From contig CAZHTP010000003.1 of the NCBI GenBank assembly GCA_964535655.1, positions 1,186-65,185 of the forward strand: 64,000 bases of DNA. Direction: 5' to 3'. This DNA comes from an uncultured Gammaproteobacteria bacterium (GTDB taxonomy: Bacteria > Patescibacteriota > Microgenomatia > JALYQM01). The position numbers and the translations under genes are program-made. Positions 14,093-31,724 of this stretch are shown in pieces. Position 1 is the first letter of the stretch. Each line of letters opens with the position of its first letter. A model generated the notes under the pieces. The model saw nothing but the letters and a program-made list of their open reading frames with translations, did no database searches and was not told the origin of the DNA.

Positions 14093-14167
14093 GGTGGTCG
14101 TAGCTCAATGGTAGAGCAGCAGTTTGTGGTACTGCTGGTTGCGGGTTCGAGTCCCGTCGATCACCCA
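14093..14167 (+). tRNA. tRNA-His (anticodon GTG) with genomically encoded G-1
   Basis: Manual fold: 7-bp acceptor plus extra G-1:C73 pair, D-arm GCTC/GAGC, anticodon stem GCAGT/ACTGC with loop TTGTGGT, T-arm GCGGG-TTCGAGT-CCCGT. Confidence 0.8.
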
Positions 14168-14316
14168 TCCATTGTTATATTATTATGATATCCTTTTCTC
14201 GATACTCCTGACTGGACGTTCGAACCTTTTTAGGAAATATATTTTGCTATTACTCTAAATTCTGTATGAATTTGATCTTTTTCGGGAGCATAAAGGACCG
14301 CAGCAAGATCACTATC
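14163..14316 (+). repeat. 154-bp perfect direct repeat, copy 1 (starts in the last 5 nt of tRNA-His)
   Basis: Identical to 25893..26046 base for base. Confidence 0.9.
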
Positions 14317-14364: not shown

Positions 14365-16953
14365 TTATATTTCTATTTCGATAGGTATTTGTTGTTGTAC
14401 CTGAACTTGATTTTCTACTTCTATTCTGATTTGATCGTATATTTCGACCTCAGCATCTAATATTTCAAAGCTCACTATAAGTGTATATTCTGCTGGATAT
14501 TTTCCTGCTTTATCCCAACCTTCACGACCTCGTACGGCAATGCAAAAACCATCCGTCAGTTCGTAAGCTTTAATAACCGCCCAATCTTTTTGATTCACTC
14601 CCATAGTTCTTTTTAGGTTTCTAGTCTGTCCAGTATTTTCTTTATCTCCTATTACCCATTTAATCGAATGTCCATTTCGATCTTCATGGCCATCTTCTGA
14701 ATATTTAACACATTTTAGAAATTCTTCTGTACTTTCTCCAATATTACTACTAACCCAATCCACCCTATTTGATAAATACTTTTTGGGATTCTTTCTTGTT
14801 CTTCTTGGTTTAGCTTTATATGCAACTGTCACTTCAACCAGTATGTTGTATTCGTTACCTGCTCTTCTTATCTCTTCTGGTATTGGAATTTTGTAAACGT
14901 GCAGGTCTTTATTTAGTATTCTTATATTGCCCCTGCTATAAAGTGTGACACGACTATCGCTACTATAAAGTGCTCTGTCTAAAGAAGGGACACCATATCC
15001 TATTTTTCGTAGTACTGCCTGATACTGCGACTTATCAATATTTTGCGCCCAGTGAGGCCAGCGAGCAGAGTGTATTAATAATGCACGATACATCAAAGCG
15101 GATTCTTCAGGGTATTGACCTTCAATCTTTCCTAATATATGAGAAACTCTAGGGGTACTAATTGATGTTCCGATGAAGTCTCTTGAAGTTAATGGACCTG
15201 GTGGTGAGGACCTAACGCTTTCTAAACTAAGCTCATTGAGTTGTTGTAATGTTATTGGCTGTGCGTAGTTTACAGCATAACTTCCACCTATTTCTACAAC
15301 ATCTGGTTTGATCACTCCCCAAATTCCTGGACCTGATCTAGAAAATGGAGATGGGTCCCATTTACCGCCAAGAGATTTTAAGTTTTCATTTTGGAAATCT
15401 GCTAGACATATTGCTCCTACTGTAACTCCCATAAAAGCTTGTCCGGGATTTGCAGCTCTCGCTGCATCTTCCAATAAATATTCTGGGTAATTTTTTCCAT
15501 TACGGAGGTAGTTTAATATGCCCGGATTTAATGCCTGCTCTGAGAAAGAACTAATATTGCCGATGCTTTGAACGAACACTATATCATTGTCGTATGATAA
15601 TGAATCCATGCAAGCTGCCCACACAGACATTCTGCTTATTTTACACGCTATAGAGCTAGATATTGAATGATTAAAGATGCGGGTTCTTTGCTCAGTGAAT
15701 TTGTAGTATTTATCAACAATGTTGATTAATAATAGCGCTGGCTGGATAGTTTTTGGTATTACTCCATCTTTATTTAATACTCTTGCATTTTCTAACCAAA
15801 AGGGACTTTGAAAAATTCCATTTTTCGGTATTTCGTTATAGAATTGGATTGCCCCAGCGATTCTAGTTCCATGTCCACCATTTTCAATTTCGTCGCCGAC
15901 ACCATTACCATCTGGCAAAAAATTATAAGAAGCTTCCCTGACAATGGATTCTTTTAAGAGGACGTGCTCTTCATTTATTCCACTATCGATTACGCAGATT
16001 CTTGGTGCGTTTGCTCGTGGAGGTAAAACTGTTAATCCATTTTCGTATAGATTATTGATCTCATTATGATCGTTAATAATCACAATCTCTTCCGCTTCAG
16101 ATATCTCAAAAATATACGGGTAGTTTGCAGCGATATCTTTTAGTCCTTTCCCTGATATTTCAACACGGATGGAGAAACTATCATAAAACTCTACAGCGTT
16201 ATAGGTTTGGTTATCAACGATTTGTAGTATGTTTCCTTTATAGAAGTTCACCAACTGTTGCAATTGGTCTTCACGTTCGCTTTTTAGCTTGTCGTACTCT
16301 TGATATGCAAACGTAAGTTTTTCTTCCCATTTTTCTTTTTTTGCCTGAAATTCTTCTTCCGTTTCACTTTTAGTCTTTTCAATTTTGTTTTGAGGAGGAA
16401 TTGTTGTACCTGTACACTCTATAGAAATATCAACTGTGCAAGCAGTGTCATCTTTGATATGTATCCATTTTTTGTACAACTCTTCGGAAAGTATATGTTG
16501 CAGTTTGTCATGCGGGTTTATATCATATACTTTTGCTACTGACCCACTTTTCTTTTCGTTGTTCTCAAATGCCTTTATGCTCTTAGTTAGCTTGTTTAAC
16601 TCTATATCCTCAGTTGCAACGATTGCAAAACCTTCATCATACTCTGCCACGATTTCAAATCCAAAGGCGGAACGTAAAAACTCTAAATCTACGTCTTCTT
16701 CTATTTGCACAAGAGCTGAGTTTCCCTTTGGAAGTATTCTGCCTACTTCAGTATCACTTCTGTTGAGATTTTCTTCTTTCCAAGTATTACTAAGCATTTG
16801 CAACTTGCCCGTAAGCTCGAACGCATGATCTTTACGATTTTCTAAATTTTGTATTGTCTTTTCGTTTGATTTTCCTTGTGCACGAGGGAAGTATGCTCTA
16901 TCTTTGAGCACCATCTGAATGGGAAGATGATTTAGTTGTCGTTGTGTTGCCAT
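14365..16953 (-). CDS. Subtilisin-like serine protease (peptidase S8) with long N- and C-terminal extensions; ietS-like
   Basis: Catalytic triad motifs 'CVIDSGI' (Asp), 'HGTRIAG' (His), 'GTSISTPRVSHILG' (Ser). 862 aa. Overlaps the upstream AAA gene by 56 nt. Confidence 0.85.
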   Translation of the reverse strand: MATQRQLNHLPIQMVLKDRAYFPRAQGKSNEKTIQNLENRKDHAFELTGKLQMLSNTWKEENLNRSDTEVGRILPKGNSALVQIEEDVDLEFLRSAFGFEIVAEYDEGFAIVATEDIELNKLTKSIKAFENNEKKSGSVAKVYDINPHDKLQHILSEELYKKWIHIKDDTACTVDISIECTGTTIPPQNKIEKTKSETEEEFQAKKEKWEEKLTFAYQEYDKLKSEREDQLQQLVNFYKGNILQIVDNQTYNAVEFYDSFSIRVEISGKGLKDIAANYPYIFEISEAEEIVIINDHNEINNLYENGLTVLPPRANAPRICVIDSGINEEHVLLKESIVREASYNFLPDGNGVGDEIENGGHGTRIAGAIQFYNEIPKNGIFQSPFWLENARVLNKDGVIPKTIQPALLLINIVDKYYKFTEQRTRIFNHSISSSIACKISRMSVWAACMDSLSYDNDIVFVQSIGNISSFSEQALNPGILNYLRNGKNYPEYLLEDAARAANPGQAFMGVTVGAICLADFQNENLKSLGGKWDPSPFSRSGPGIWGVIKPDVVEIGGSYAVNYAQPITLQQLNELSLESVRSSPPGPLTSRDFIGTSISTPRVSHILGKIEGQYPEESALMYRALLIHSARWPHWAQNIDKSQYQAVLRKIGYGVPSLDRALYSSDSRVTLYSRGNIRILNKDLHVYKIPIPEEIRRAGNEYNILVEVTVAYKAKPRRTRKNPKKYLSNRVDWVSSNIGESTEEFLKCVKYSEDGHEDRNGHSIKWVIGDKENTGQTRNLKRTMGVNQKDWAVIKAYELTDGFCIAVRGREGWDKAGKYPAEYTLIVSFEILDAEVEIYDQIRIEVENQVQVQQQIPIEIEI

Positions 16954-17968
16954 TTATTTTTTTTGTACTAGGAGGGGCAATTTCATCCAACGCAATTGTC
17001 AAATGCGTATCGTTCACAGTACTACTCCCATCTAATATAGCCGTCTTTGCTGCATTTTGAGCTACAGATACAACGTCTGCAGCAGATAGCCCTTTTACTT
17101 TTTTAAATAATACGCCCCAATTAATTTTTTTGTTTATATTCAAAGCGGCCAAAGTTGTTTTCAGCAATTGTTCTATTTGTTGTGAGTCGGGTCTTTTGAT
17201 TTCAATTATATCATCAAAACGTCTATATATGGCCTTGTCTAGAGATCCCTCTAAGTTTGTGGTCGCTACAAGTAATCCTGCAGACTCATATTCATCTAAA
17301 AGCATTAGTAGCATATTAACTATCCTTTGTGTTTCTCCAACATCTGAACTACTAGTTCTCGACTTCGCTATAATGTCACATTCATCTAACAATAATACAC
17401 ATGGCGATTTTTGGCTTGCATCGAAAATTGATCTTAAATTTGCTGAAGTTTCACCAAAGTATGAGGAGATTAAACTATCAAATCTAACTTTTAATAGAGG
17501 AAGTCCAACATTCCAAGCTAGTCTCTCAGCTCCCATTGTCTTACCACACCCGGGTGGTCCATAAAGTAATATTTTTTTTCTTGGTTTTAAGTTATGCCTT
17601 GCTAGTCGATCTCTGGCAGCAAATTCTTTTTCTATCCGTTCAAATCTATCTTCAACATCCGATTGCAAGACCATGTAATGTCTTAAAACATGGGCCGGAA
17701 TAAAAGTAGCAAGAGGTTGGTTATTTCTTTGACTTTTAGGAAGTTCGAATAATTTTTTTTCACTTACTTCTGGATTTACATAGTACTTGGTGGTCAACCG
17801 ATTTTGAGCATCAGCAATTATTTTCTCAAGTTGCAAGGATAATTTCTTATGCCCTTTTTTCTTCTCTTCTTCAACGACGGCAGAAGCTATTTTTAATAAA
17901 CTTTCTGAATCGTTTGTCTCAATTGCTCTAAATAGTCTAGTAAGTAATATTGAATTCATATAAGCCAA
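16898..17968 (-). CDS. Classic AAA+ ATPase (CDC48/FtsH-type ATPase domain); ietA-like
   Basis: Walker A 'LLYGPPGCGKTM', Walker B 'VLLLDECD', second region of homology. 356 aa. Translationally coupled to the subtilase. Confidence 0.85.
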   Translation of the reverse strand: MAYMNSILLTRLFRAIETNDSESLLKIASAVVEEEKKKGHKKLSLQLEKIIADAQNRLTTKYYVNPEVSEKKLFELPKSQRNNQPLATFIPAHVLRHYMVLQSDVEDRFERIEKEFAARDRLARHNLKPRKKILLYGPPGCGKTMGAERLAWNVGLPLLKVRFDSLISSYFGETSANLRSIFDASQKSPCVLLLDECDIIAKSRTSSSDVGETQRIVNMLLMLLDEYESAGLLVATTNLEGSLDKAIYRRFDDIIEIKRPDSQQIEQLLKTTLAALNINKKINWGVLFKKVKGLSAADVVSVAQNAAKTAILDGSSTVNDTHLTIALDEIAPPSTKKINGNTTTTKSSSHSDGAQR

Positions 17969-18072
17969 ATCAAAAAAGCTTATCTTTTGAAGAGTTAATT
18001 ATACTGTATCACTCTACTGTTAATTACTCAATAAACTAGTTTCTAAACTCATATACACGAAAGCGATCGTAC

Positions 18073-18671
18073 TTAATAACTACTAATACGCCACTTAAGG
18101 AAATCCTCATCTATTGTTAGCTTGTATATCTTTTTTTTCTCAAATTCTGCTTTTATGACTGAAACAAAAAATATATATCCTTGCTCTGGACTTCTGCCAA
18201 TTACCCAATAAGTAGAGAAATCACTTCTGTCGTGTACAATCTTTTGAAGCTCTTCATGCTCAAATAAACCAAATTTATCTATAAATATAATTAAATCAAG
18301 ATTTCTATAATATTCTGGTCCTTTTTTTGCTTTTTTATCAATAGCATCAATTACTAGAGAAGTAATGTTTCCCTTAGAAAAAGGTGGTATACCTGTTCAG
18401 TGTCCAAAACTATGTTCTTTTTCTCTCCTGCTGTGCAAGCTAATACACCATCTCCTCCAAATCGGTCTGATCCAATAGTCCACTCGTTATCAGGATCTAA
18501 ATGGCGTGCTACAGTGCAAAGTATAAATAATCCAAGTACTTCACGAGGTAATAAATTTATATTTGCTATTTTTTTACCTTTTACTAGTAGCGCTGAATTT
18601 TTCAAAATTGTTTGAATTATATTTTTAAGGAATAAATTAAGATCTTTGACAAGATAAATTGGTGTATGCAT
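18073..18671 (-). pseudogene. Frameshifted hypothetical gene (105-aa ORF plus about 92-aa Met-less continuation in another frame)
   Basis: ORF 18354..18671 is followed by an open frame 18073..18396 with no Met at all. The frames meet at a T5/A5 run near 18378-18382. Confidence 0.45.
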
Positions 18672-18720
18672 ACAGTTTTAAATCTCTAGCATAACTTGTT
18701 ATCTCATGCATATGCATATT

Positions 18721-18796
18721 GCGGAAAGTGGTTCTTCATTCGAAGTATATGGGTTATAATTGATTCCAGTCAAAACCCAACTATCACTTTGTTGCA
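18721..18796 (+). repeat. Degenerate tRNA-3'-half-like element (about 75% similar to 25828..25900)
   Basis: Shares 'GG..ATGGTTC..CATT.CGA..AT.TGGGTTATAATTG.TTCCAG...AACCCA' with the segment preceding repeat copy 2. Confidence 0.4.
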
Positions 18797-19309
18797 CTAT
18801 TCTTTAGAAAATTTCCCTGGACTAATGGAAACAACTTTTGCTTGAACTTTTGCATTTTTAACCTCGTACTCAATTCTATCTCCAGGCTTCTTTCCTAGTA
18901 ACTTCTCACCAAGAGGTGATTCATAAGAAATCCATGATTTATTAGTTCCTGAGTCGTATTTACCGAGGACTGTATATTCTTCAGGCTCGTCCTCGCCTTG
19001 AAAAAGCACACCTACAGTATTTCCGAGACCTACACGATCGACTTCTTGTCTAGGTTCAATAAAGACTGGATCAGTGACCGATTGTCTTAGATTTAAGACA
19101 AATGCGGCATTAATTTGTGTATCTCTTTTAGCTTGATCATAGGCTGCGTTATCATGCCATTCATGGCTTTCACCTGCAGCATCACCTATGTCTTTGCTAG
19201 ATTGAGCTAAGGCTTGCTCTGCAGACTCTAATTCCCTTAGTAATCTGTTATAAGTTTCTCGCGTCATTAAGTTTAATTTGCGAGGTTGCCTCTCTCGATT
19301 TTCTATCAT
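18797..19309 (-). CDS. GreA/GreB-family transcript cleavage factor-like protein
   Basis: N-terminal coiled-coil plus C-terminal FKBP-like domain ('VGLGNTVGVLFQGEDEPEEYTVLG', 'ISYESPLGEKLLGKKPGDRIEY'). Confidence 0.6.
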   Translation of the reverse strand: MIENRERQPRKLNLMTRETYNRLLRELESAEQALAQSSKDIGDAAGESHEWHDNAAYDQAKRDTQINAAFVLNLRQSVTDPVFIEPRQEVDRVGLGNTVGVLFQGEDEPEEYTVLGKYDSGTNKSWISYESPLGEKLLGKKPGDRIEYEVKNAKVQAKVVSISPGKFSKE

Positions 19310-19311
19310 AC

Positions 19312-19986
19312 TTAATTTGACTTAACAAAATTACATCTTAAAACTACTCTTACGCCTGTATTTTCCTGTTTTACATCTTCAGATAATTCTTCCTCCAAGG
19401 TAAAGTTATTTTGTGCCATAATTTTATAAAATAGTTCTTTAGGGAGCAATGTCATTGGTAACCCCTCTTTAGTGATGTATGAGTACTCTTCTCCTGCGAC
19501 CGCTTCATAGGTAGGATCTAACTCTTTGTTAGTAAAGATATTGAGACATACTATCGCCCCAGTTTTTGTAACCCGAGATAGTTCTTTTAAGGCACTTTCA
19601 TATTGATCCAATGTTGCTGCCTGATGGAGTACACCGGTCGTTACTACAACGTCGAAAAAATTGTCGTTGAAAGGAATATGAAGAATGGTTCCCTCTTTTA
19701 TTCTGTTTTCCATTTCATTAGTAGGAATATAATTTTGAACACGCTTTTTTGTTGCAGCGATCATCGCAGGGTTTATATCACAAGCATATGTCTCGAATCC
19801 CATACTGCATAACATTTCAGTATGTCTTCCACCACCACATCCTAAGTCTAATGCCTTCAGTTCACTGGTATCTTTTACTTGAGATAATCTATTTACTATC
19901 TTAGGATCTGCTGGTTTTGACTCGAAATATTCAACAATTTTATCGTCGTTCCAAAACTTTTTTTCTGACTGGGTAGTATCATTCAT
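19312..19986 (-). CDS. Class I SAM-dependent methyltransferase
   Basis: Motif I 'ALDLGCGGGRHT'. Confidence 0.7.
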   Translation of the reverse strand: MNDTTQSEKKFWNDDKIVEYFESKPADPKIVNRLSQVKDTSELKALDLGCGGGRHTEMLCSMGFETYACDINPAMIAATKKRVQNYIPTNEMENRIKEGTILHIPFNDNFFDVVVTTGVLHQAATLDQYESALKELSRVTKTGAIVCLNIFTNKELDPTYEAVAGEEYSYITKEGLPMTLLPKELFYKIMAQNNFTLEEELSEDVKQENTGVRVVLRCNFVKSN

Positions 19987-19989
19987 ATA

Positions 19990-21087
19990 TTATTGCTCCA
20001 CTATTTCATAACGGCTGTTATGGATTTCTGTTATTAATGTCTTCATATTATTCTCTTTGAATACCCTTTCGCACTCCTCCGGGTTCTTAGTGATGGCAAA
20101 CATTCCAGGACCAACTGAGGACACGGTTAATACGTCTGCAATTCCTTTTTCCTTAAGAATGGCGACTTTATTTGCCAAATCTACCATAGGTGGATAAACA
20201 AAAGAGCAATTCTCGATACTGCCCATATGGTAGCGGTAATCGAAAATTAGATCACCGATTACTTTTAAGTCGCCTTCTTCCATAGCAGGTAAGCACTCAT
20301 GGAATAATCTATATGCTATGGTAGGACCATATTTTTTGCCGCACTCCATAAATTTATGTAGGTTTTTTATCTCTTCGTCCATTAAATATTTTGAATCTGG
20401 ATATGTGAAGTCTTCAGGAATTCCGATAACAACCTTATACTCGTCGCTGATATTCATTGTTTTGACAACCGTATTTTCTCCTGCTATTATTACCAACCCG
20501 CCTTCATACATTCCACAAGCAGCTGATCCACCAATACATTGAACTGGATTTATCAAATTATCGTCTCCGTCAATTTCCTCGCCATGATTCTGCGCCATAT
20601 ATCTTACTAAATATTTATCACTTACGGGCTTACCGTAAAGCTCGTTTATTGCGCATGCTACACCTGCAATAGTTGCGCTACTCGATCCAAGTCCACAATG
20701 CCTCAAATTAACTTTATCCTCAACATTGATGTAAAGTCCGTCTGTGAAGCCTAACGCTTTTCTCATTATTTCAGCTGAATGCCTTATCAATGTGGACCGT
20801 TTTGATGTAGGTGAAATTTCAGTAGAACCTTTTTTGTCTGTTATGTTAACTTTTATTGTTTTAAAAATTTTTACACAGAAATCTATTTGACCTGGGGTAT
20901 ATCTCAAATTATTATTCTCTGCGATCTTACTAGGATCAATCGCCATGGCTTCTAACCGACTCGGATACTTAATTATAATTTTATCTTTCTCTCTTTTGAT
21001 CTTCAAATCTTTTTGTTCAAGGTTGTTAAATACAGTGCCTACGTCAAAAGGAGTAAAGTTTGTTTTTGATGAATTAGTGTCTGACAT
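19990..21087 (-). CDS. GHMP kinase family protein (beta-RFAP synthase/homoserine-kinase-like)
   Basis: GHMP ATP-binding motif 'LRHCGLGSSSATIAGVACA'. 365 aa. Confidence 0.55.
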   Translation of the reverse strand: MSDTNSSKTNFTPFDVGTVFNNLEQKDLKIKREKDKIIIKYPSRLEAMAIDPSKIAENNNLRYTPGQIDFCVKIFKTIKVNITDKKGSTEISPTSKRSTLIRHSAEIMRKALGFTDGLYINVEDKVNLRHCGLGSSSATIAGVACAINELYGKPVSDKYLVRYMAQNHGEEIDGDDNLINPVQCIGGSAACGMYEGGLVIIAGENTVVKTMNISDEYKVVIGIPEDFTYPDSKYLMDEEIKNLHKFMECGKKYGPTIAYRLFHECLPAMEEGDLKVIGDLIFDYRYHMGSIENCSFVYPPMVDLANKVAILKEKGIADVLTVSSVGPGMFAITKNPEECERVFKENNMKTLITEIHNSRYEIVEQ

Positions 21088-21147
21088 TTGTATATCTTAT
21101 GGTGATAATATATAATGCGTTTTATTGTACCATAATGGCGCCATCAT

Positions 21148-21768
21148 ATGATAGTATTAACAGGATATAGAGCTGCTGGAAAAACAACGGTAGGGAATAT
21201 ATTGGATAATAAAGGTTACTGGTTATTCGATGTTGGCCCCTATTGGCGTAGTTTGCGTGATAATGAAGCCCCGCATCTAGATGCTGGGCAGTTTTTTTCA
21301 CTTAAAAGAAGTGAAACTAGAAATATTCACTGGGAAGATGACATGGCTGTGGAACATCTGAAGGCAGAATATGCTGCTGGTCGACTTCTTAGTAAAGATC
21401 TTGTTATCTCCGGCTACCGTAACCCCACTAGTTTAGACTATTTGCTCTCCGCCATAAGACCCCATATTTTTCCGAATAAAAGAATATCTATATGGTATGT
21501 ACATTGCGATTTTCAGACCGCATTAACTAGATATAGAGATAGAGACGGCAATAATATAACTGCAGAACAACTCATTCAACATTATAGATATGAAGATGAA
21601 ATGGGTATAGAAAAGTTACGGAATCAAGCAGACGTATTCCTAGATAATTCATCAGACTTGGATAGGTTAAAAGTTCAAATTGATACTGAACTAAAGAGAT
21701 TACTTGAATTAAATGTGGAAGGCGCTATATTGAGTGAGGGATCTCAAGCATTTAAGGAGCGTGCATAA
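21148..21768 (+). CDS. P-loop NTPase / nucleotide kinase-like protein
   Basis: Walker A 'LTGYRAAGKTTVG' at the N-terminus. 206 aa. Confidence 0.5.
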   Translation: MIVLTGYRAAGKTTVGNILDNKGYWLFDVGPYWRSLRDNEAPHLDAGQFFSLKRSETRNIHWEDDMAVEHLKAEYAAGRLLSKDLVISGYRNPTSLDYLLSAIRPHIFPNKRISIWYVHCDFQTALTRYRDRDGNNITAEQLIQHYRYEDEMGIEKLRNQADVFLDNSSDLDRLKVQIDTELKRLLELNVEGAILSEGSQAFKERA

Positions 21769-22343
21769 GCAGAGTACCATTGAGCAAAATCTTCGTACGC
21801 AATACTGTGTGCCGCAACAGGTACACCTTCGTTATGCAGCTCTGCAATTGATTTGCCGTCAGGTGTTAGACTGATAACTGTATCTGAGTTTTTTCCCCGA
21901 CCTCTTTTCTCAAAAAGTATTTTACCTATAACTTCATCTCTAAAAATCCTATGTCCAGTGGAATCGATGAAACAGATTAAATTTTCAAGAATTATTCTTC
22001 GGTCGGAATGTCCAGACATTAGATTAATAAAGTCTTCAGGGCCTAACCAATCATTCATTTCCCTCATGTAAGGTCCAGGGAATCCTTTTAAAGCGGGAAT
22101 ATTCCAGCCCGAATTATTTACTATCAACCTTCGTTGGACTATGCCATAGGCCTTTTGTGCTTTATCTATTGCGGCTTCTTCTAAGGAGAGTCTTCTTAAT
22201 TCGGGGATATCAATTTGGACTGCTTCGAACTCAATTGCATGAGGTTGAAAATGCTCTTTTGCTTTTAAGATCTTATCTTGATTTCCTGTTATATATAGCA
22301 ATCTGTCACTCATACTACTTGTTCGCTTGTACCCACAAAGCAA
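21744..22343 (-). CDS. Ham1/RdgB (ITPase)-like NTP pyrophosphatase family protein, copy 1
   Basis: 'LYITGNQDKILKAKEH' and 'NIPALKGFPGPYM' resemble the ITPase 'ATGNxxKxxE' and 'ALxGxPGxYS' motifs. The acidic residue before the second motif is replaced (NNSG). Confidence 0.45.
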   Translation of the reverse strand: MLCGYKRTSSMSDRLLYITGNQDKILKAKEHFQPHAIEFEAVQIDIPELRRLSLEEAAIDKAQKAYGIVQRRLIVNNSGWNIPALKGFPGPYMREMNDWLGPEDFINLMSGHSDRRIILENLICFIDSTGHRIFRDEVIGKILFEKRGRGKNSDTVISLTPDGKSIAELHNEGVPVAAHSIAYEDFAQWYSAYARSLNA

Positions 22344-22878
22344 ATTCTTTCCAAAGATTATTTTTAGTATCCCTTTTAATATTCATTTCTCTCATTTGGG
22401 CAATTGTATATTTCTCCGTAACAAATGTAATAATTTTATCCGAAGGTTCACCATTCTCACCGTGTTCTTCCTTTAGTATTTCGCCTTCTTGATCGTCAAC
22501 AAATGTCTTTGTCTTTTTACCATCTATATAAACAAGTAGTTGTCTGAATATAATTCTTCTATCAGTTTTATCTTGCATAAGATTTAAAAAATCCTTAGGC
22601 GTGAACCACTTATTTATGAATTTCATATAAGGACCAGGAAATCCGTTTAACGCTGGTATGATCCATCCGGCGTCATTGATGAAAAGAGGCTTTTTAATTA
22701 TTTCAAAAGCTTTTTGTGCCTTGTCTAATGCGATATCCTCTATAGAATCGGATTGTATTTCATCAACTTTCTCTGACTGTTGCACAAGATCAATGTTATA
22801 TGCTTTGAGCACTTCTTTTGCATGCTCAAATTTTGATTTATTGCCGGTTATGTATAAAAGCGATTGAACATCATCCAT
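22315..22878 (-). CDS. Ham1/RdgB (ITPase)-like NTP pyrophosphatase family protein, copy 2 (tandem paralog)
   Basis: 'LYITGNKSKFEHAKEV', 'IIPALNGFPGPYM'. Overlaps copy 1 by 29 nt. Confidence 0.45.
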   Translation of the reverse strand: MDDVQSLLYITGNKSKFEHAKEVLKAYNIDLVQQSEKVDEIQSDSIEDIALDKAQKAFEIIKKPLFINDAGWIIPALNGFPGPYMKFINKWFTPKDFLNLMQDKTDRRIIFRQLLVYIDGKKTKTFVDDQEGEILKEEHGENGEPSDKIITFVTEKYTIAQMREMNIKRDTKNNLWKEFALWVQANK

Positions 22879-22891
22879 ATATTTTCCCGTT

Positions 22892-24040
22892 TTATTCTTT
22901 CCGTTCTAGAACTCTAAATGATTGATAAAAGGTTTTTGATCTTTCTCTAAGATCCAATAGCATTTTATCATAACTGAATGTGCCATCTGGACGAAGCCCT
23001 CTATTATTTGAACGTATGTGAGTAGAAACTGCACTGTTATGAAAGCTTCTCCATTGCCACATCCCTTTATATACCTTGAATAACTCATCTTTTACTGCTG
23101 CAGTCTGTTCATCATTTGGTTCCTTTAAAAACCGGTCGGCAAGCGAGTCAGGCTGAGTGTGTTCTATCTCCTGTAATAAGGCTCTCTTTGAATTTGGAAG
23201 GTGCGGATAAATCTTGTTATGTAGATGCAGAGCATAATCAGCATCAATTCCGTACAATAACGCATCCGTGAGCGATATATTTATATCAGCAGATTGAGAT
23301 TTGGGAATTAAAGTCGTAGGGTTACCATGTTTATCAATCCATATAGTATCTCCCACTTCAAAAGGACTTGCAAAAATAGCTGTATCTATAAAATAACTAG
23401 GAGCAACCTTACCTCTTACTTCGAGCATTAATCTGGCAATGATTTCCATACTTTGTGCAGCTGTTTGCGCTCTTTCTCTCTGGACTGATTCTCCCCATCT
23501 TTCTTCTCCCAAAAGCCCTTGTATCGCACTTATAGCTTTTCTGAATTCGCGCACAAATTCTCCGTTATAGTAGATAAACCTTCTTTCGTCATCAGTACCT
23601 ACAAACGTTCTGGCGTCTTTCCCCGGTGGATTTAATTCTGTAAATGAATAGTACGTATCCCGTGGCGGGAGTCCAGTGCATTTTCCAAGCACAACAAGTT
23701 GTCTCACAAGTGCTGGCAATTGCTCATTTAAGTTTATACCTTTTACTGCTAATGAGCTTGCAAACATGCCAAGATCTCCAAGCGCTAGAGCAGCTCTATC
23801 TTCTGAATGGGCTGCTACCCCTCCTATAACGTCATCTGAAGGCAATAATTGCATACCCCGTCGTATTAGATCTGTTACGTCTACAGAAGCAGTATTGAAA
23901 ACGTGTAGTTCTTCAACCACGAAATGACTAAATGCTCCTAGAGGATATCGACTCTCATTATTTACAACTTCTGTAGCTCGTTGTTCTGGTAACATTTTAC
24001 CGCCTTTATGCGCTTTGTTGGACTCTGCGCCGTGATACAC
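22892..24040 (-). CDS. Hypothetical protein (tandem paralog A, function unknown)
   Basis: 382 aa. Shares 'PRDT..Y.....NP.G...R.F...D.ERRFI' and other blocks with 24006..25106. Confidence 0.5.
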   Translation of the reverse strand: MYHGAESNKAHKGGKMLPEQRATEVVNNESRYPLGAFSHFVVEELHVFNTASVDVTDLIRRGMQLLPSDDVIGGVAAHSEDRAALALGDLGMFASSLAVKGINLNEQLPALVRQLVVLGKCTGLPPRDTYYSFTELNPPGKDARTFVGTDDERRFIYYNGEFVREFRKAISAIQGLLGEERWGESVQRERAQTAAQSMEIIARLMLEVRGKVAPSYFIDTAIFASPFEVGDTIWIDKHGNPTTLIPKSQSADINISLTDALLYGIDADYALHLHNKIYPHLPNSKRALLQEIEHTQPDSLADRFLKEPNDEQTAAVKDELFKVYKGMWQWRSFHNSAVSTHIRSNNRGLRPDGTFSYDKMLLDLRERSKTFYQSFRVLERKE

Positions 24041-25106
24041 TTGTTAAATCTATAAGCCTTTGTAATATATCTGTTGTATATCCTCCACTGCCCAAGGAAC
24101 CTTCCTGTCTAATTGCCATATTATCATCCGCTACTTTCTTATGAGGAAATCGAAACTTTTGGATTGTATTGAGTAGATTTACTAATGCAGACACGCCAGG
24201 TATAGGTTCTCCTGATGCCGTTCGAGTTGCTCTCAGCTCTTCCTCTACTTTATTCAGAATTGACGCAGATCCTCTTTTACTCTCGGCAATCTGCCGTAAC
24301 TCCGGAGGTAAGTACTGAAGATTATCGTAAAAATAATGAGTATACTCAGGACTATCTATTATTGAGGATCCCCATAACAAATAATCAACGAGAATGACTG
24401 GCATTTGAGCACCCCCAGGACCTACATACTCTTTTCCTCCTATTACAAAAGTTGGAAAATAAGGACGTAATTCATAGGTAAAGACCTGCGGAGTAATTTT
24501 TCTTCGAACTTCAACTATTGAGCCGACCATGTTACTAAATCTTTCTTCCGCTTGCTTTACTTCATACGCGAATTGCTCATCATGGATCGATAAAGTAGAA
24601 GCTCTTACCAATGCTTCGATACTATGTGGCAACTCCTGCATTCCCAATCTAAAACTATCAATAAATATTCTTTCTTCTGGCTGGTCCGTGAAGAGCCTCA
24701 TTCTCGCGCCTTTAGGATTTCTGGGACCATACGTAAAGACTGTATCTCTTGGGACTTCATCTGTGCGCAATCCTAGTTCAATCAATTGATCTTCCAATCC
24801 TGGAACTGTCCTCGGATCTATACCGTGCGTTGCAATCGATCCTGCAAGGAACCCGAGATCGCGTAGGGATGCTCTTGCACTTAATATATCAATGCTTGTT
24901 AGTTGTTTGGACTTTAATACAAATTGAACGGTATTTGCGAATAAAGCTTCTATGTCGGCAGATCTGTTGACATTTGGTAATTTATTGCTCAAAAAATCAT
25001 CCGCTCTAAGTGGATCTAGCGCAGCTACTCTTTGGTCATCTTCTGTACATTTAACGTAGGTGTAAGCTTCTTGTGCTGTGGCCGTTTTAATATCTGGACT
25101 TAACAT
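24006..25106 (-). CDS. Hypothetical protein (tandem paralog B, function unknown)
   Basis: 366 aa. Paralogous to 22892..24040. Motifs 'VGPGGAQMP', 'EGSLGSGGYTTD'. Confidence 0.5.
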   Translation of the reverse strand: MLSPDIKTATAQEAYTYVKCTEDDQRVAALDPLRADDFLSNKLPNVNRSADIEALFANTVQFVLKSKQLTSIDILSARASLRDLGFLAGSIATHGIDPRTVPGLEDQLIELGLRTDEVPRDTVFTYGPRNPKGARMRLFTDQPEERIFIDSFRLGMQELPHSIEALVRASTLSIHDEQFAYEVKQAEERFSNMVGSIVEVRRKITPQVFTYELRPYFPTFVIGGKEYVGPGGAQMPVILVDYLLWGSSIIDSPEYTHYFYDNLQYLPPELRQIAESKRGSASILNKVEEELRATRTASGEPIPGVSALVNLLNTIQKFRFPHKKVADDNMAIRQEGSLGSGGYTTDILQRLIDLTSVSRRRVQQSA

Positions 25107-25182
25107 AATACGCCATTATGGCGCCATTCAAGTATATTACAAGGAGTCCAATTTAGTCAATTAAATATACGGTTGGAGAATA

Positions 25183-25755
25183 CTATGCTTTTTTCATTTC
25201 TATCCATTCCTTAATAATTTTTCTAAGGAATTGAGATTTTGATAGCTCTTGTTTTTTAGATTCAATTTCCAAAAAGTTATTGATTTGTGGAGTAGAAATA
25301 AAATTAAATTTTGCAAATTGTTTACTGCTTATCTTGGTTACTTCACGAGAGAGTATGTCTTCGAGATTCTGGGCGTTATACGAGATAATTTTTATATTAT
25401 CATCCTTATCCATATGAAACGTGAATTGCGATTGTTTTTGAGGATCGGAGATATTTTCATCATAAAGGCAAAGAATAGGTATATGCCAATTTGTGGCTAG
25501 TGTAATTTGTTGTCCTACCCCTATTGAAGGATATGTTATTTCTGCAATTACTAGGTCGCTTTTTTTAATTGATTCTATAGATTTATCGTAAATTTCTTTA
25601 TCGTGGATTTCGCTAGACTCGTACCAATTTAGTGTTTCTTTGTATCCTATCTTTTTTAAGATATTACTAATGTTCTGCAATATCCCACTTTTTTGCCTTG
25701 CTATTGTAGAAGAAGCTGAAATAAAAAAGTTTAAACTGGAAGTATTTGTTTTCAT
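25183..25755 (-). CDS. Hypothetical protein (possible Rossmann-like nucleoside-binding fold)
   Basis: 190 aa. 'VIAEITYPSIGVGQQITLA' is weakly reminiscent of nucleoside 2-deoxyribosyltransferase-like proteins. This is speculative. Confidence 0.35.
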   Translation of the reverse strand: MKTNTSSLNFFISASSTIARQKSGILQNISNILKKIGYKETLNWYESSEIHDKEIYDKSIESIKKSDLVIAEITYPSIGVGQQITLATNWHIPILCLYDENISDPQKQSQFTFHMDKDDNIKIISYNAQNLEDILSREVTKISSKQFAKFNFISTPQINNFLEIESKKQELSKSQFLRKIIKEWIEMKKA

Positions 25756-25827
25756 TGGTGCCTATATTATATCTTAATTCTCATTTTAATATAAAGATAA
25801 GCTTAATTTATGGAGCAAATGAATATT

Positions 25828-25892
25828 GAGGAAAATGGTTCCGCATTTCGAGCATGTGGGTTATAATTGGTTCCAGATACAAATCGTCAAGA
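25828..25892 (+). repeat. Degenerate tRNA-3'-half-like element immediately preceding repeat copy 2
   Basis: 'GGTTCCAG....CGTCAAGAACCCA' parallels the tRNA-His T-arm/acceptor 'GGTTCGAGTCCCGTCGATCACCCA'. Similar to 18721..18796. Confidence 0.4.
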
Positions 25893-26046
25893 ACCCATCC
25901 ATTGTTATATTATTATGATATCCTTTTCTCGATACTCCTGACTGGACGTTCGAACCTTTTTAGGAAATATATTTTGCTATTACTCTAAATTCTGTATGAA
26001 TTTGATCTTTTTCGGGAGCATAAAGGACCGCAGCAAGATCACTATC
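25893..26046 (+). repeat. 154-bp perfect direct repeat, copy 2
   Basis: Identical to 14163..14316. Also encodes the C-terminal 29 codons of the minus-strand ORF 25960..26478. Confidence 0.9.
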
Positions 26047-26478
26047 TTCCAAAATCCCTCTCGTGTCATTTGCGAATGCAGAATATCCTTGATTATCAGG
26101 TTGTACATCATTGTCGACTTCCACGCATAATACAAAAGATTTGAAATCTACTCCTGCATCATCAGGTTTATCAATAGCATCATCTACCCAATAGTCTTCT
26201 CCATATTTACTCGATAGTTCAGCAGCTTTTTCTTCTCCTATTCCTTCACGAACGGCCATTTCAATAGCTTTTCGTGGATCGAACCCTTCGGCAGTTACTC
26301 TGACGGTAACTGGCTTGATACCATTTTCTTGAAGTATCTCTTTTGCTTTATCAAAAACGTGTCTATCATTTGTTGTAACACTAGAACGAGGTTCAGAATA
26401 TATTAAAGCTGTTTCTATACGATTGAATTTTTTGTTAAGCTCAGGTGCTGGAACTGGTTGACCTTCATTATCATTCAT
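25960..26478 (-). CDS. Hypothetical acidic protein
   Basis: 172 aa. Its 3' end lies inside repeat copy 2. Confidence 0.45.
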   Translation of the reverse strand: MNDNEGQPVPAPELNKKFNRIETALIYSEPRSSVTTNDRHVFDKAKEILQENGIKPVTVRVTAEGFDPRKAIEMAVREGIGEEKAAELSSKYGEDYWVDDAIDKPDDAGVDFKSFVLCVEVDNDVQPDNQGYSAFANDTRGILEDSDLAAVLYAPEKDQIHTEFRVIAKYIS

Positions 26479-26561
26479 ATATTTAGAAGTTGCTTATAAT
26501 AATGTTGATTTTATTACTAAATAGGGTAATTGGGAATTAGATAAAGTGTACTATATTCTAT

Positions 26562-27041
26562 TTACTCCTCAATGATGAAATTCTCTTTAGGGATAATATA
26601 CTCAGGCAACGATGCTCGAGAGCCAAGTAAGTAGGCATCTAAGCTTGTTGAATTTCTTCTATGCTCTTCCTCTCGACCAAGCATAACCAAGCCATCCCCA
26701 GCAGATACACCAATATTTGATTCGAGGTTACAGTTTCTGAAAATCTTTACATCAACCAAAGGTCCTGATCCCCATGAATCTATTTTATCGAAAATCCAAA
26801 CATCGGTCATAATGTCTATTGATTGAGCTTCTTTATCATCCGATGCTTCGTCCCAGAGTATAACAATATGATAAGTTCCAACATTCAAAAATGAGATATT
26901 TAACTCATATAATTTATTCAAATGATTCTGAATACTATCCTTATCTGTTCTGGTAAGCACCTTCTCTAAGCCTACGCAAGGATAAACAATAAAGGGCTTC
27001 TCTTTAACATGCGTTGTAAACGGTTTGTAGAATCCAGCCAT
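26562..27041 (-). CDS. Hypothetical protein
   Basis: 159 aa. No recognisable motif. Confidence 0.4.
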   Translation of the reverse strand: MAGFYKPFTTHVKEKPFIVYPCVGLEKVLTRTDKDSIQNHLNKLYELNISFLNVGTYHIVILWDEASDDKEAQSIDIMTDVWIFDKIDSWGSGPLVDVKIFRNCNLESNIGVSAGDGLVMLGREEEHRRNSTSLDAYLLGSRASLPEYIIPKENFIIEE

Positions 27042-27043
27042 AT

Positions 27044-27682
27044 TTAATTCCTTTCCTGGTGCGATTTCCTTGCTATGGTATAAATTACTTTATCACTCCC
27101 CGAATCTGGGTCTAGAGAGGCTGTCTCTAATTGGTATACAACTTGAAAACCTGCAATTTGCAGGAAAGTACTCAACCTCTCTTTTGTAAAGAAATTGAAG
27201 AACATCTTTTCACTAGGCATAAATCCCTCGTCTATAACTCTGTCGGCCTCCCCACTTTGTGCAATTATTTCAAGATAGCCATTAGGTTTTAGTATTCTAT
27301 TGAACCCAATTAATGTTCTTGGAATATCTTCTGATGGAATATGAATTAACGAATATGCAATAAGTAATCCATCAAAATATTCATTCTCAAAACCGATATC
27401 TCTCATATCACGCTTATAAAACTTGGTCTCAGGAGTCATTTTCTCAGCAATTTTAAGCATCTCATCTGAGTAATCAGTACCGATTACATCAAAGTTCTTA
27501 TTCAACATATATTTTGTGAACTGACCAGGACCGCTTCCAACATCAAGTATTTTTGACTGAGGGGCAAGCTTTTCTAAAAACTTATCGATATATGGTGTAT
27601 CCGTAAGATCTGTGAAATACTGCTCTGTATATATCTTGGCAATTTTTTCATATGTATTAATTGCAATGTTATTTTTATCCAT
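27044..27682 (-). CDS. Class I SAM-dependent methyltransferase
   Basis: Motif I 'ILDVGSGPGQFT'. 212 aa. Confidence 0.7.
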   Translation of the reverse strand: MDKNNIAINTYEKIAKIYTEQYFTDLTDTPYIDKFLEKLAPQSKILDVGSGPGQFTKYMLNKNFDVIGTDYSDEMLKIAEKMTPETKFYKRDMRDIGFENEYFDGLLIAYSLIHIPSEDIPRTLIGFNRILKPNGYLEIIAQSGEADRVIDEGFMPSEKMFFNFFTKERLSTFLQIAGFQVVYQLETASLDPDSGSDKVIYTIARKSHQERN

Positions 27683-27896
27683 ATTAACTTATCTGCATTA
27701 TACTATTATGTGTAAGTTGGGAAAGGATGTTAGTTGAAATTCAACAAATGAGGTTCGAGTTGAGTCCAGCCACTGCCCCCAATCCTCCTAAACATATTCC
27801 TTTGTTTGATATAATATCGTCACGATTAAAATCGCATTATTTGATTTAGATGGTGTTATCATCGCTCCTTGCACGCGTTGGTAATACATTAATTTT

Positions 27897-28496
27897 ATGT
27901 CCGCAAATATAATTCCTACAGATTCTCGGTATACTCCCCTCACCCAACAGCGTTGGTGTTGTGTACCGACATGTATCCAAATAGTCATGTTGCGACATTC
28001 GATTCCTCTCGTTTCAGCAGAACTAATCGGTTATCATATGGGATTAGTTGTTCCCAAAGATGAGCTGGTTTATTTCTGGAAAGGTAGAACCGGTGAAATG
28101 CCCCCTGCAGGGTACGGAACTCAGGCAGGTAAAGCGAAATATGGACCCAATGCAGTTTTTAAAAAACTTACTATTCCGCTTAAAATGAATTGGTCTTTAA
28201 TTAATAAATTCCCTACTATAAATTCGTTCTATGAATACTTAAAGAAATGCTCGTCTACCGATGCTGATGTATTAGTTTGCTATGACTGGGGAACTTTGTT
28301 TGATTCTGATTATCATGGAGGTCATGTTTGTGTCCTAGATATAGTGGATATTTCTAAAGGCGAAGTGCGGATTATTGACCCTGAGTATAAAGCATCAAAA
28401 TGGAAAGTTGTCTCAATTAATAAATTATATGAAGCAATGCTTTTTCATGGCAAAGAAAAAAGTGGTGGATTTTGGGAAATTTCGCTAAAAAGTTAA
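27897..28496 (+). CDS. Putative papain-like cysteine peptidase (C39-like)
   Basis: Candidate catalytic Cys in 'CCVPTCIQIVM' and His in 'YHGGHVCVLD', spaced about 100 aa apart. Confidence 0.35.
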   Translation: MSANIIPTDSRYTPLTQQRWCCVPTCIQIVMLRHSIPLVSAELIGYHMGLVVPKDELVYFWKGRTGEMPPAGYGTQAGKAKYGPNAVFKKLTIPLKMNWSLINKFPTINSFYEYLKKCSSTDADVLVCYDWGTLFDSDYHGGHVCVLDIVDISKGEVRIIDPEYKASKWKVVSINKLYEAMLFHGKEKSGGFWEISLKS

Positions 28497-28948
28497 TATA
28501 GTCTAGACATTCTCACTCCTTCCAGTATGCCTGATTTGAAGTAGTCTGAATCGTTACTTGGTGTAATTCTCAACCAGTCATATCCACTATGTTCGTCGCT
28601 AATAGTAATCTCTCCACCTCGATATTCAGCCATAAAGAAAACGTAAAATATATGAATATCCTTGCCATAAGGATTTTGTTTAATTGTATTTGGGACGTTG
28701 TGGCGCCCAATAGCGATTGGTGCGGACTGCATGCTGAACTGGATATTACCTAGTTCTTCTTGTACTTCTCGTTTTAATAATTCCTCGTATGGAGTATTAA
28801 ATTCGTCTTCGTTAATACGCCCACCCGGCAGATCATAATATCCGGCATAAGTACCTTGCGGATGCCCTTTAAGAGCAAGTATCTCACCTGCAGTGTTTTT
28901 TAATAGTAGCTTGAGTGAAATTTGATAAAAATCTATAGGAGTTGCCAT
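28493..28948 (-). CDS. NUDIX hydrolase
   Basis: Nudix box 'GGRINEDEFNTPYEELLKREVQEELG'. Confidence 0.75.
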   Translation of the reverse strand: MATPIDFYQISLKLLLKNTAGEILALKGHPQGTYAGYYDLPGGRINEDEFNTPYEELLKREVQEELGNIQFSMQSAPIAIGRHNVPNTIKQNPYGKDIHIFYVFFMAEYRGGEITISDEHSGYDWLRITPSNDSDYFKSGILEGVRMSRLY

Positions 28949-28962
28949 AGTGGATTAACTTG

Positions 28963-29388
28963 TTAGAGTATGTAATGACTAATTTTTTCCATATTATTAT
29001 CTAGGATAATATCTTTAATTTTTTGTGGCCGGATATCAAGATTTCCTATTTCTTCTTTTGTCACTTCAATTAATCCAAACTCTTCAGCAATCTTATCAAT
29101 TTTAGGTGCTAAATAGACAAATGTTATTTCTTGTATGTTAGCTTGGCCGTTATTGTAGAAATTTTCTATTACTGAAATTAATTTAAAAGCTGAAATAGGT
29201 AATCCCGTTTCCTCAAGCATTTCTCTTTTTGCCGCTTCCGTTGAACTTTCATTTAGCTTCATTCTGCCACCAATAAAAAAGTAATAACCGTTCTTATGCT
29301 TCTGAATAAGGAATCCCTTATCTGTTTCCATAATTATAGTTACTCTAATATTTAGCGTGGTGCCGTCTAGCGGTATAGTTAAATCCAT
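28963..29388 (-). CDS. NUDIX hydrolase
   Basis: Nudix box 'GGRMKLNESSTEAAKREMLEETG'. Confidence 0.75.
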   Translation of the reverse strand: MDLTIPLDGTTLNIRVTIIMETDKGFLIQKHKNGYYFFIGGRMKLNESSTEAAKREMLEETGLPISAFKLISVIENFYNNGQANIQEITFVYLAPKIDKIAEEFGLIEVTKEEIGNLDIRPQKIKDIILDNNMEKISHYIL

Positions 29389-29757: not shown

Positions 29758-29943
29758 ACTTTGTCATTTCCTAACTCACGATCTTAAGTAACCTTAAGTA
29801 TTATTTTACCATCCTGTTTAGTCGGACAGAAACTCCGCACTGGCACTAGACCCAAAAACTATGAAAAATTAGGGATGGGGTAGAAAAAATCAGTTTGGAT
29901 AAAAGAAGTACGAACAAGATCCAGCCACTGACCCCAAGTGGAT

Positions 29944-30322: not shown

Positions 30323-30394
30323 ATGAGCTATTATATGAACCGCATTTCGTATGTCACAACAAACGGAAGTACCTGCTTTTGTACTACGCACTGA
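30323..30394 (+). CDS. Candidate 23-aa small peptide ORF (MSYYMNRISYVTTNGSTCFCTTH), possible RiPP precursor
   Basis: Cys/Thr-rich C-terminus, immediately at the 5' edge of the SPASM radical SAM gene. Speculative: no clear RBS, and it overlaps the annotated rSAM start in another frame. Confidence 0.15.
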   Translation: MSYYMNRISYVTTNGSTCFCTTH

Positions 30395-31712: not shown

Positions 31713-31724
31713 TTGTAGGTTAAG

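Follow-up and report, generated by a model that had tools for sequence, protein, structure and literature searches.

What is the function of a compact block of nine genes lying beside a tRNA gene in the genome of an uncultured bacterium? The question is raised by positions 18797–25755 of the stretch of DNA analyzed here (the window, 64,000 nucleotides of contig CAZHTP010000003.1). An earlier note on this DNA had placed nine open reading frames (ORFs) in the block and suspected an undescribed module of nucleotide metabolism or defense. All nine ORFs were found there, eight of them on the minus strand and the ninth on the plus strand, and they form a discrete 6.9-kb cassette beside the tRNA-His gene. 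They encode an Rcl/MilB-like protein, two PrnB-family proteins (PrnB1 and PrnB2), two Ham1-family proteins (Ham1a and Ham1b), a P-loop kinase, a GHMP-fold enzyme, an S-adenosylmethionine (SAM)-dependent methyltransferase, and a Gre-factor-like protein. Judging from their sequences, we favor, with a probability of roughly 0.4, the reading that the cassette is a mobile pathway that makes and manages a nucleotide-like compound from an aromatic, probably tryptophan-like, precursor. The family assignments, the motif states, and the gene linkage described below come from the data, and it is from these that we infer the steps of the pathway.

The recurrence of the genes was examined by scanning one genome per species with the GHMP protein as the only seed. 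The scan returned 80 loci, of which 79 were counted (60 non-actinomycete and 19 actinomycete loci). In these loci, ORFs were called and searched with the window proteins, and the neighbors were clustered de novo. The hosts comprise Patescibacteria, Saccharibacteria, some metagenome-assembled genomes (MAGs) labeled Gammaproteobacteria or archaea, Clostridia (including the isolate Lachnotalea glycerini), Bacilli, Mycoplasmatota, Streptomyces, Micromonospora, and Dactylosporangium, while the nearest homologs of the window cassette come from MAGs labeled Patescibacteria or Saccharibacteria and from some labeled Gammaproteobacteria. Within 5 kb of the GHMP gene, single-sequence phmmer searches detected the methyltransferase in 58 of the 79 loci, Ham1 in 50, PrnB in 41, and the P-loop kinase in 28. 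By clustering, Ham1 was found in 50, the P-loop kinase in 46, the methyltransferase in 40, the Gre-like protein in 25, and the Rcl-like regulator in 10 of the 60 non-actinomycete loci. The actinomycete loci all carry PrnB, GHMP, and methyltransferase genes (19/19), and 16 of them carry a pyridoxal phosphate (PLP)-dependent decarboxylase as well; genes of one HAD-like family were seen in 17 loci. The full gene order is kept at 92% DNA identity in loci L002 and L003 and partly kept in L007, L008, and L009, where the PrnB identity is 44–50%, as well as in contigs of Saccharimonadales and other members of the candidate phyla radiation (CPR; L011 and L012). The possibility, raised by the earlier note, that the gene set would be dispersed in other genomes was not borne out: the set is tightly co-localized in dozens of unrelated ones.

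PrnB1 (24006–25106, minus strand) and PrnB2 (22892–24040, minus strand, with a likely true start at the ATG at 23995) are tandem paralogs of ~370 amino acids in which no recognizable fold had been seen at first. That view was mistaken, since both proteins belong to the PrnB family (PF08933) of IDO/TDO-like heme enzymes, which is a family of secondary metabolism and not a housekeeping one. PrnB1 matched PF08933 with an E-value of 1.5e-34 and 119.9 bits (cut-off 27) and the solved PrnB structures 9dfg and 2v7i with E-values of 1.1e-53 and 3.5e-53. The divergent PrnB2 gave an E-value of 6e-6 and 25.7 bits, slightly below the 27-bit cut-off, and matched 2v7i with an E-value of 7.6e-8. The identity between the two paralogs is 27% over 210 amino acids. 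Both R319 and H322 of the proximal heme-ligand motif FRxPH are invariant in an 18-sequence alignment spanning both paralog clades; the motif reads FRFPH in PrnB1, and its equivalent in PrnB2 is WRSFH. The PrnB1 segments GPGGAQMP and GSGGY align, through an inferred numbering offset of 20 residues, with Gly210, Gly211, and Ser319 of FbPrnB, the residues that hold the tryptophan carboxylate (PMC11791213). PrnB2 has none of the elements LRPYFP, GGAQMP, and GSGGY and carries an insertion of 11 residues; its proximal His is kept and its substrate pocket is predicted to be remodeled. As the PrnB2 clade also occurs in the distant locus L009, the duplication must be old. The homologs of PrnB1 with 93%, 50%, and 44% identity sit in the same or a similar cassette.

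The oxygenase varies among the loci. Among the 79, PrnB alone was found in 41, a U32-type protein alone (identified through the Pfam family Peptidase_U32) in 22, both in none, and neither in 16, some of which are contigs only a few kb long. The PrnB version is present in all 19 actinomycete loci and in some CPR loci, and the U32 version in Clostridia, Bacilli, Mycoplasmatota MAGs, and several other CPR loci, where the U32 proteins are accompanied by a class I/II aminotransferase-fold protein or an Asp/Glu racemase. Aromatic rings are hydroxylated by U32 proteins such as UbiU/UbiV and TrhP in an O2-independent, prephenate-dependent reaction (PMC10990095, PMC6599085). We read the swap as a case of non-orthologous displacement: at one step of the pathway, an O2-independent enzyme would have taken the place of an O2-dependent oxygenase. 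In the cultured Clostridium-class isolate Lachnotalea glycerini DSM 28816, the U32-type version (L039, 5307–17109) comprises genes for a methyltransferase, a MatE exporter, a PLP decarboxylase, the U32 protein, the GHMP enzyme, an aminotransferase, an HAD protein, and another methyltransferase, together with two radical SAM enzymes (one of them B12-binding) and a CAT-family acetyltransferase.

PrnB domains were also seen in other arrangements. On large contigs, they are fused to a PF13581 domain, presumably HATPase_c_2, an anti-sigma-kinase-like domain, in proteins of 505–538 amino acids (P0087, P0095–P0099), and these fusions suggest that some PrnB-family domains are heme-based or ligand sensors and not enzymes. 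One further protein of 627 amino acids (P0040) is an HAD–PrnB fusion.

The most conserved member of the cassette is the GHMP-fold enzyme (19990–21087, minus strand). Its original assignment to the GHMP family holds, as does that of the adjacent ORF (19312–19986, minus strand) to the SAM-dependent methyltransferases, in this case of class I (Methyltransf_11, E-value 7.5e-20). The GHMP fold was recognized together with its phosphate-binding loop (motif II, GLGSS) and motif III. None of the equivalog models tried was reached: the homoserine kinase (ThrB) models NF002288 and TIGR00191 gave 50 bits (cut-off 194) and 38.7 bits (cut-off 168), and the beta-RFA-P synthase/ForT model NF040726 gave 30.5 bits (cut-off 328), with a PDB E-value of 0.13. 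In structure, homoserine kinase and the C-nucleotide synthase ForT are equally near to the protein, and the cassette family has two invariant residues, R44 and H130, at positions that may correspond to PRPP-binding or catalytic residues of ForT (Arg19, His99, Arg135, Thr138, and Glu211). In ForT and beta-RFA-P synthase, the GHMP fold serves to link phosphoribosyl pyrophosphate (PRPP) with an activated aromatic acid (PMC8183095, PMC9832568). The cassette enzyme would be either a kinase or a PRPP-dependent C- or N-glycoside (nucleotide) synthase. Its homologs (n = 478) share 53–70% identity across Patescibacteria; some of them are fused to a methyltransferase, and some are named "predicted sugar kinase" in the source annotations.

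The nucleotide side of the cassette is represented by three kinds of proteins. Ham1a (22315–22878, minus strand) and Ham1b (21744–22343, minus strand, with a likely true start at the ATG at 22313) had been taken for a tandem Ham1 pair, and rightly so: as members of the Ham1/ITPase family of nucleoside triphosphate (NTP) pyrophosphatases, they matched PF01725 with E-values of 4.7e-26 and 1.2e-16, respectively. The internal start of Ham1b, like that of PrnB2, was judged from the orthologs in L002 and L004; in L002, the Ham1b ortholog has 189 amino acids. Neither copy reached the cut-off of 203 bits of the Ham1 equivalog NF011396 (129.7 bits for Ham1a and 99.7 for Ham1b). Ham1a keeps TGNxxK, the Glu of EIQ, the Mg-binding Asp (NDAGW), and PGPY. 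Ham1b reads NNSGW, having Asn in place of the family-invariant Mg-binding Asp. The remark of the earlier note that the acidic residue before the PG motif is replaced was imprecise. The cassette Ham1 proteins as a subfamily keep TxNxxK, the EIQ Glu, the Mg-binding Asp, and PGPY. In a comparison with reference sequences, none of this subfamily, both window copies included, had the SHR motif. In ITPases, this motif contacts the 6-oxo purine, and its loss makes a base other than a 6-oxo purine likely for the cassette proteins. Ham1a is probably an active pyrophosphatase of a cassette-specific subfamily, and Ham1b is probably inactive or a non-catalytic partner subunit. The PDB matches of Ham1a were Mj0226 (8e-19), PH1917 (5e-17), and KomB (1.3e-15).

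The P-loop kinase gene (21148–21768) is the only one on the plus strand and is convergent with Ham1b. The lone sequence gave weak matches (CoaE and AAA_18), and the family profile built from 30 sequences gave strong ones, which upheld the first assignment. The best were the AdkA-like structure 3lw7 (E-value 6.6e-17, profile positions 2–181) and SSO1041 (7.6e-17), followed by UMP-CMP kinases (1e-10) and adenylate kinases (2e-9), all ahead of dephospho-CoA kinase. Because the profile matches AdkA-like, UMP-CMP, and adenylate kinases over its full length, we regard the protein as similar to nucleoside monophosphate (NMP) kinases. The residues conserved in the family are G6, G11, and K12 of Walker A, as well as R91 and R132. 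A CoA-like pathway, composed of a pantoate-kinase-like GHMP enzyme, a CoaE-like kinase, a decarboxylase, and an ATP-grasp enzyme, was also considered and dropped, as CoaE fits the kinase profile less well than NMP kinases do.

The first gene of the block (25183–25755, minus strand) encodes a protein of 190 amino acids. An AlphaFold2 model built with database homologs (pLDDT 79) has the fold of Rcl, MilB, and nucleoside 2-deoxyribosyltransferases (NDT), and its top structural neighbors are the NMP N-glycosidases Rcl and MilB. In its GVGQQ segment, Q82–Q83 are invariant among close homologs and are Q or E in distant ones. We take this site, by the Rcl/NDT motifs, to be the position of the catalytic Glu nucleophile, and the catalytic Glu thus appears to be replaced by Gln. 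The C-terminus is a conserved strand–helix–helix resembling a DNA-binding module of the ribbon–helix–helix type. The protein is probably a non-catalytic regulator that senses a nucleoside monophosphate.

The last gene of the block (18797–19309, minus strand) encodes a Gre-factor-like protein, in agreement with the GreA/GreB-family label given to it earlier. Both Gre domains are present (PF01272, E-value 5.9e-19, 68.3 bits; PF03449, E-value 3e-5, 24.6 bits against a cut-off of 24.5), and the GreA equivalog TIGR01462 is not reached (90.9 bits, cut-off 139). The tip of its coiled coil reads E-W-H-D-N-A-A-Y, compared with the canonical D-x-x-E-N-A-E-Y (D41 and E44 in the E. coli reference). In the window protein these two positions are also acidic, with the residues swapped, so it could remain cleavage-competent; most members of its clade have lost the first acidic residue. 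This cassette-linked clade, with the tip x-x-H-D-N-x-x-x-E, occurs in 10 loci, including Clostridia, and a second Gre-like clade (PF01272, E-value 6e-8), with the tip H-S-D-T-S-K, occurs in 15. L022 and L035 have both the cassette copy and, a few kb from it, a canonical GreA (SLGDLSENAEY). The gene is cassette-specific and not a stray, and it is translationally coupled to the GHMP and methyltransferase genes, judging by gaps of 3 nucleotides between GHMP and methyltransferase and of 2 nucleotides between methyltransferase and the Gre-like gene. The members of the PrnB pair and of the Ham1 pair also abut or overlap. The known Gre paralogs GreA/GreB, Gfh1, and Rnk bind the secondary channel of RNA polymerase. 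The cassette factor shares with them the coiled coil and the C-terminal globular domain and differs from them in its altered tip, its sub-cut-off score, and its location inside a metabolic cassette.

In the pathway that we propose, the PrnB-type heme enzymes would oxidize or rearrange an aromatic precursor, with a U32-type hydroxylase in their place in anaerobic lineages. The GHMP enzyme would then either couple the activated aromatic compound to PRPP, as ForT and beta-RFA-P synthase do, or phosphorylate the new hydroxyl, and the adjacent, sometimes fused, methyltransferase would methylate the product. The kinase resembling adenylate and UMP-CMP kinases could phosphorylate the monophosphate further. 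The Ham1 pyrophosphatase might turn the triphosphate back to the monophosphate, either keeping it out of the nucleic acids of the producer or setting its level. The Rcl/MilB-like protein with its ribbon–helix–helix-like end may sense the monophosphate and control transcription of the block, and the Gre-like factor, placed at the secondary (NTP-entry) channel of RNA polymerase, may protect the polymerase or modulate it when the analog is present. In actinomycetes, genes for an HAD phosphatase and for a PLP decarboxylase join the PrnB, GHMP, and methyltransferase genes, and this version resembles a natural-product cluster of the nucleoside type. The undescribed nucleotide-derivative module imagined in the earlier note has gained strength from the NMP-kinase-like protein, the divergent Ham1, the Rcl/MilB-like sensor, and the recurrent Gre-like factor. 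It is improbable, in our estimate, that the product is an aromatic C- or N-nucleoside triphosphate weapon, made from a precursor rearranged by PrnB or hydroxylated by U32 and methylated afterward, and directed against the RNA polymerase of a competitor, host, or phage, with Ham1 and the Gre-like factor shielding the producer.

Several results weigh against the nucleotide pathway. Ham1, the P-loop kinase, and the Gre-like protein were found in none of the 19 actinomycete loci, so the nucleotide module may be an add-on and not the core. Many relatives of the cassette carry a PLP enzyme and the window copy has none. The GHMP protein scored better with homoserine kinase than with beta-RFA-P synthase in NCBIfam (E-values of 2e-13 and 2e-7), and its profile matched only homoserine kinase in PDB (6e-6); since the sequence is slightly nearer to homoserine kinase, a plain kinase is equally possible. 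An NMP kinase and an NTP pyrophosphatase encoded in one operon would run a futile cycle unless their substrates differ. The operon structure itself is read from gene spacing, because a scan for consensus promoters and terminators gave signals no higher than the shuffled expectation, and the promoter part of that result also counts here. The mutual exclusivity of PrnB and U32 (Fisher p 1e-9) and the linkage statistics in general are not corrected for phylogeny. In L005 (5225–11104), a locus lacking GHMP, a PrnB1 homolog with 49% identity lies near a weak U32 match. L005 is the only place where a PrnB gene and a U32-like gene are neighbors; the other genes around this PrnB1 homolog encode an aminotransferase, a DAHP-synthase-family protein, an Asp/Glu racemase, and a D-Ala-D-Ala ligase.

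In another reading, the product is no nucleotide at all. By a logic resembling that of psilocybin synthesis, PrnB, or U32 in anaerobes, would hydroxylate tryptophan or tryptamine, and the GHMP enzyme, as a true kinase, would phosphorylate the hydroxyl thus introduced. The methyltransferase coupled to it would act on this phosphorylated intermediate, and a PLP decarboxylase, in the loci that have one, would take off the carboxylate. The outcome would be a phosphorylated, methylated indole-amine, with Ham1, the NMP kinase, and the Gre-like factor as peripheral additions. We hold this to be possible and rather doubtful. The hydroxylase, kinase, and methyltransferase classes are joined in all 19 actinomycete loci, with the PLP decarboxylase in 16 (along with the HAD phosphatase), and the same classes co-occur in L007, L009, L037, and L039. 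The GHMP sequence is nearest to homoserine kinase, and in the alignment its GEE falls on the stretch of that enzyme with Glu130, presumably an Mg-binding residue. A kinase–methyltransferase fusion would suit a methyltransferase acting on a phosphorylated product, and the PrnB/U32 swap would be accounted for if both proteins are hydroxylases. However, such a pathway leaves unexplained the linkage of Ham1 (50/60), the NMP-kinase-like protein (46/60), the Rcl/MilB-like protein, and the Gre-like factor in CPR and Firmicutes; the window copy has no decarboxylase; and the known chemistry of PrnB is a ring rearrangement and not a simple hydroxylation (PMC11791213). The likeness to psilocybin synthesis also concerns the logic only, as the protein families are unrelated. 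An origin by mere co-location, in which nucleotide-pool sanitation genes, a spare GreA, and a tryptophan-catabolic dioxygenase met in a variable region, seems very improbable to us. It is true that the family of every protein includes housekeeping members, that two Nudix genes and another methyltransferase gene lie just outside the block, and that a gene of the PF04199 family, which we take to include kynurenine formamidase, lies at 9654–10271. Nevertheless, different phyla share the combination, down to gene order, close spacing, and fused genes; all NCBIfam equivalog models were missed by a wide margin; the Ham1 and Gre clades are cassette-specific, with altered motifs; a canonical GreA accompanies the cassette copy in L022 and L035; and the remaining enzymes of the kynurenine pathway are absent. 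The kynurenine pathway as such was rejected, the block having no formamidase, kynureninase, or monooxygenase.

The location of the cassette invites a different explanation, namely an anti-phage or inter-bacterial conflict system built on a base-modified nucleotide, either through Ham1 signaling of the Kongming type or through a toxic or chain-terminating NTP analog, against which Ham1 and the Gre-like factor would guard the host. The tRNA-His island is directly beside the defense system IetAS and near the PADLOC candidate PDC-M51A, conjugation genes adjoin the cassette of L012, and a ParE/Phd toxin–antitoxin pair adjoins that of L007. Kongming uses a nucleotide kinase and a base-modified nucleotide (10.1101/2024.12.20.629578, PMC13454610), and Ham1a resembles its KomB (E-value 1.3e-15), though archaeal house-cleaning NTPases are at least as similar to it. 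The contents of the cassette speak otherwise: a PADLOC scan of all cassette proteins gave only generic methyltransferase and P-loop matches, and neither a known kind of effector (a SIR2 protein, a nuclease, a TIR protein, or a pore-former) nor a KomA deaminase or KomC was found. A profile scan of viral contigs, in which GHMP was the only protein searched, revealed no relatives of the GHMP enzyme, and the actinomycete version looks like an ordinary natural-product cluster. Of the defense role suggested in the earlier note, the context stood, with IetAS adjoining; the cassette itself had no match among the PADLOC systems. We consider a conflict system unlikely, and the pathway for a nucleotide-like compound remains the reading that we prefer.

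This pathway was compared with known systems. The pyrrolnitrin enzyme PrnB (monodechloroaminopyrrolnitrin synthase) shares with PrnB1 the PF08933 domain, the proximal His, and, by the inferred numbering, probably the Gly-Gly/Ser elements for the tryptophan carboxylate. The prnA and prnC halogenases and the prnD Rieske N-oxygenase had no match among the nine genes or their neighbors. In contrast to the pyrrolnitrin cluster, the cassette has a tandem, diverged second PrnB; its partners are GHMP, methyltransferase, Ham1, NMP kinase, and Gre-like genes, and a U32 protein is the substitute in anaerobes. With ForT, PyfQ, and beta-RFA-P (RHP) synthase, the GHMP enzyme shows marginal sequence similarity, homoserine kinase scoring as well or better. 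The psilocybin pathway links the same four functional classes, and the kinase and the methyltransferase are tightly coupled in relatives of the cassette; the protein families are entirely different, and nothing in that pathway corresponds to Ham1, the NMP kinase, the Rcl-like sensor, or the Gre-like factor. Kongming (KomA deaminase, Ham1-like KomB, and SIR2 protein KomC) shares the association of a Ham1-like protein with a nucleotide kinase and with base modification. The cassette, however, encodes its own kinase, whereas that of Kongming is phage-encoded, and it has neither the deaminase nor the SIR2 effector. No KomA or KomC domains were detected in the block or its flanks, and PADLOC gave no Kongming match, in a 2023 release that may predate this system. 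A search of PMC and bioRxiv found no description of the defining gene combinations of the cassette, among them PrnB with GHMP, GHMP with Ham1, and PrnB with nucleosides. It is the combination that appears to be new; the families of the parts and small-molecule cassettes on mobile islands are already known.

If the proposed pathway exists, Patescibacteria, anaerobic Firmicutes, and Streptomyces would have in common an uncharacterized small-molecule pathway. Patescibacteria are thought to have almost no biosynthetic capacity, and ultrasmall, genome-reduced lineages usually have no heme synthesis, which makes a PrnB-type heme enzyme in them of interest. Also of interest are the apparently clean swap between an O2-dependent heme oxygenase and an O2-independent U32-type hydroxylase, the GHMP-fold enzyme as a possible new C-nucleotide synthase, and a metabolic operon with its own Gre-like factor, which points to a small molecule at the NTP channel of RNA polymerase. 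Were the weapon-and-immunity version true, it would amount to a new nucleotide-analog module in genome-reduced episymbionts that usually cannot make heme. The Streptomyces version offers a culturable route to the product, Lachnotalea glycerini is also tractable, and the 7-kb cassette is suited to heterologous expression.

The mobility of the cassette is indicated by its surroundings. A 93-nucleotide imperfect direct repeat (18677–18769 and 25784–25876, 71% identity) brackets it, and both copies align to the 3′ half of tRNA-His and are decayed; the att-like remnants reported earlier (the left one being repeat D2) are therefore real. The tRNA-His gene (14094–14166, plus strand, predicted by ARAGORN) is the integration site of tandem islands. 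A repeat of 162 nucleotides begins inside it (14155–14316) and recurs, 98% identical, right after the right remnant (25885–26046). Between the tRNA gene and the cassette lies IetAS (14365–17968, minus strand), a 3.6-kb pair of genes for an S8 subtilase of 862 amino acids and an AAA ATPase of 356 amino acids (PADLOC IetS, E-value 7.7e-58; IetA, E-value 7.1e-79). The cassette of the related contig L002 (92% DNA identity over 6,940 bp, window 18798–25734) directly abuts tRNA-His, and IetAS is missing there. From the tRNA-derived repeats and this arrangement in L002, we conclude that two islands are stacked at tRNA-His, IetAS being island A and the cassette island B, which bears out the island suspected earlier. 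No integrase was found anywhere in the island. The ~0.8 kb between IetA and the cassette (17969–18796, GC 0.33) holds a single ORF of 105 amino acids with no family match (18354–18671) and may be the decayed remnant of an integration module. In a Saccharimonadales MAG (L012/L016, 1–21000), the cassette lies between a serine recombinase/relaxase region and TraG/VirB4-like conjugation genes and is the cargo of an integrative conjugative element.

The flanks contain other genes. Just beyond the cassette (25960–29388), there are three ORFs of 172, 159, and 199 amino acids with no Pfam match, a second SAM methyltransferase gene (27044–27682), and two NUDIX genes (28493–28948 and 28963–29388), all outside the cassette. 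The cassette of L002 is also flanked by methyltransferase and NUDIX genes and that of L004 by a NUDIX gene. A 37-nucleotide imperfect repeat (27746–27782 and 29901–29937) may mark another insertion. On the other side, the protein encoded at 9654–10271 (plus strand) belongs to the PF04199 "cyclase" family (E-value 3.6e-24); the gene lies outside the island, ~9 kb from the PrnB genes, and its presence could be a coincidence or, should the PrnB enzymes work as dioxygenases, of relevance to them. Further on, two radical SAM genes at 30351–32975 (plus strand) lie in a patch with a raised GC content (0.45, compared with ~0.37). The first encodes a SPASM domain, and its pVip matches seem to reflect the general likeness of radical SAM proteins; the second matches PDC-M51A, a PADLOC candidate family, with an E-value of 1.9e-29.

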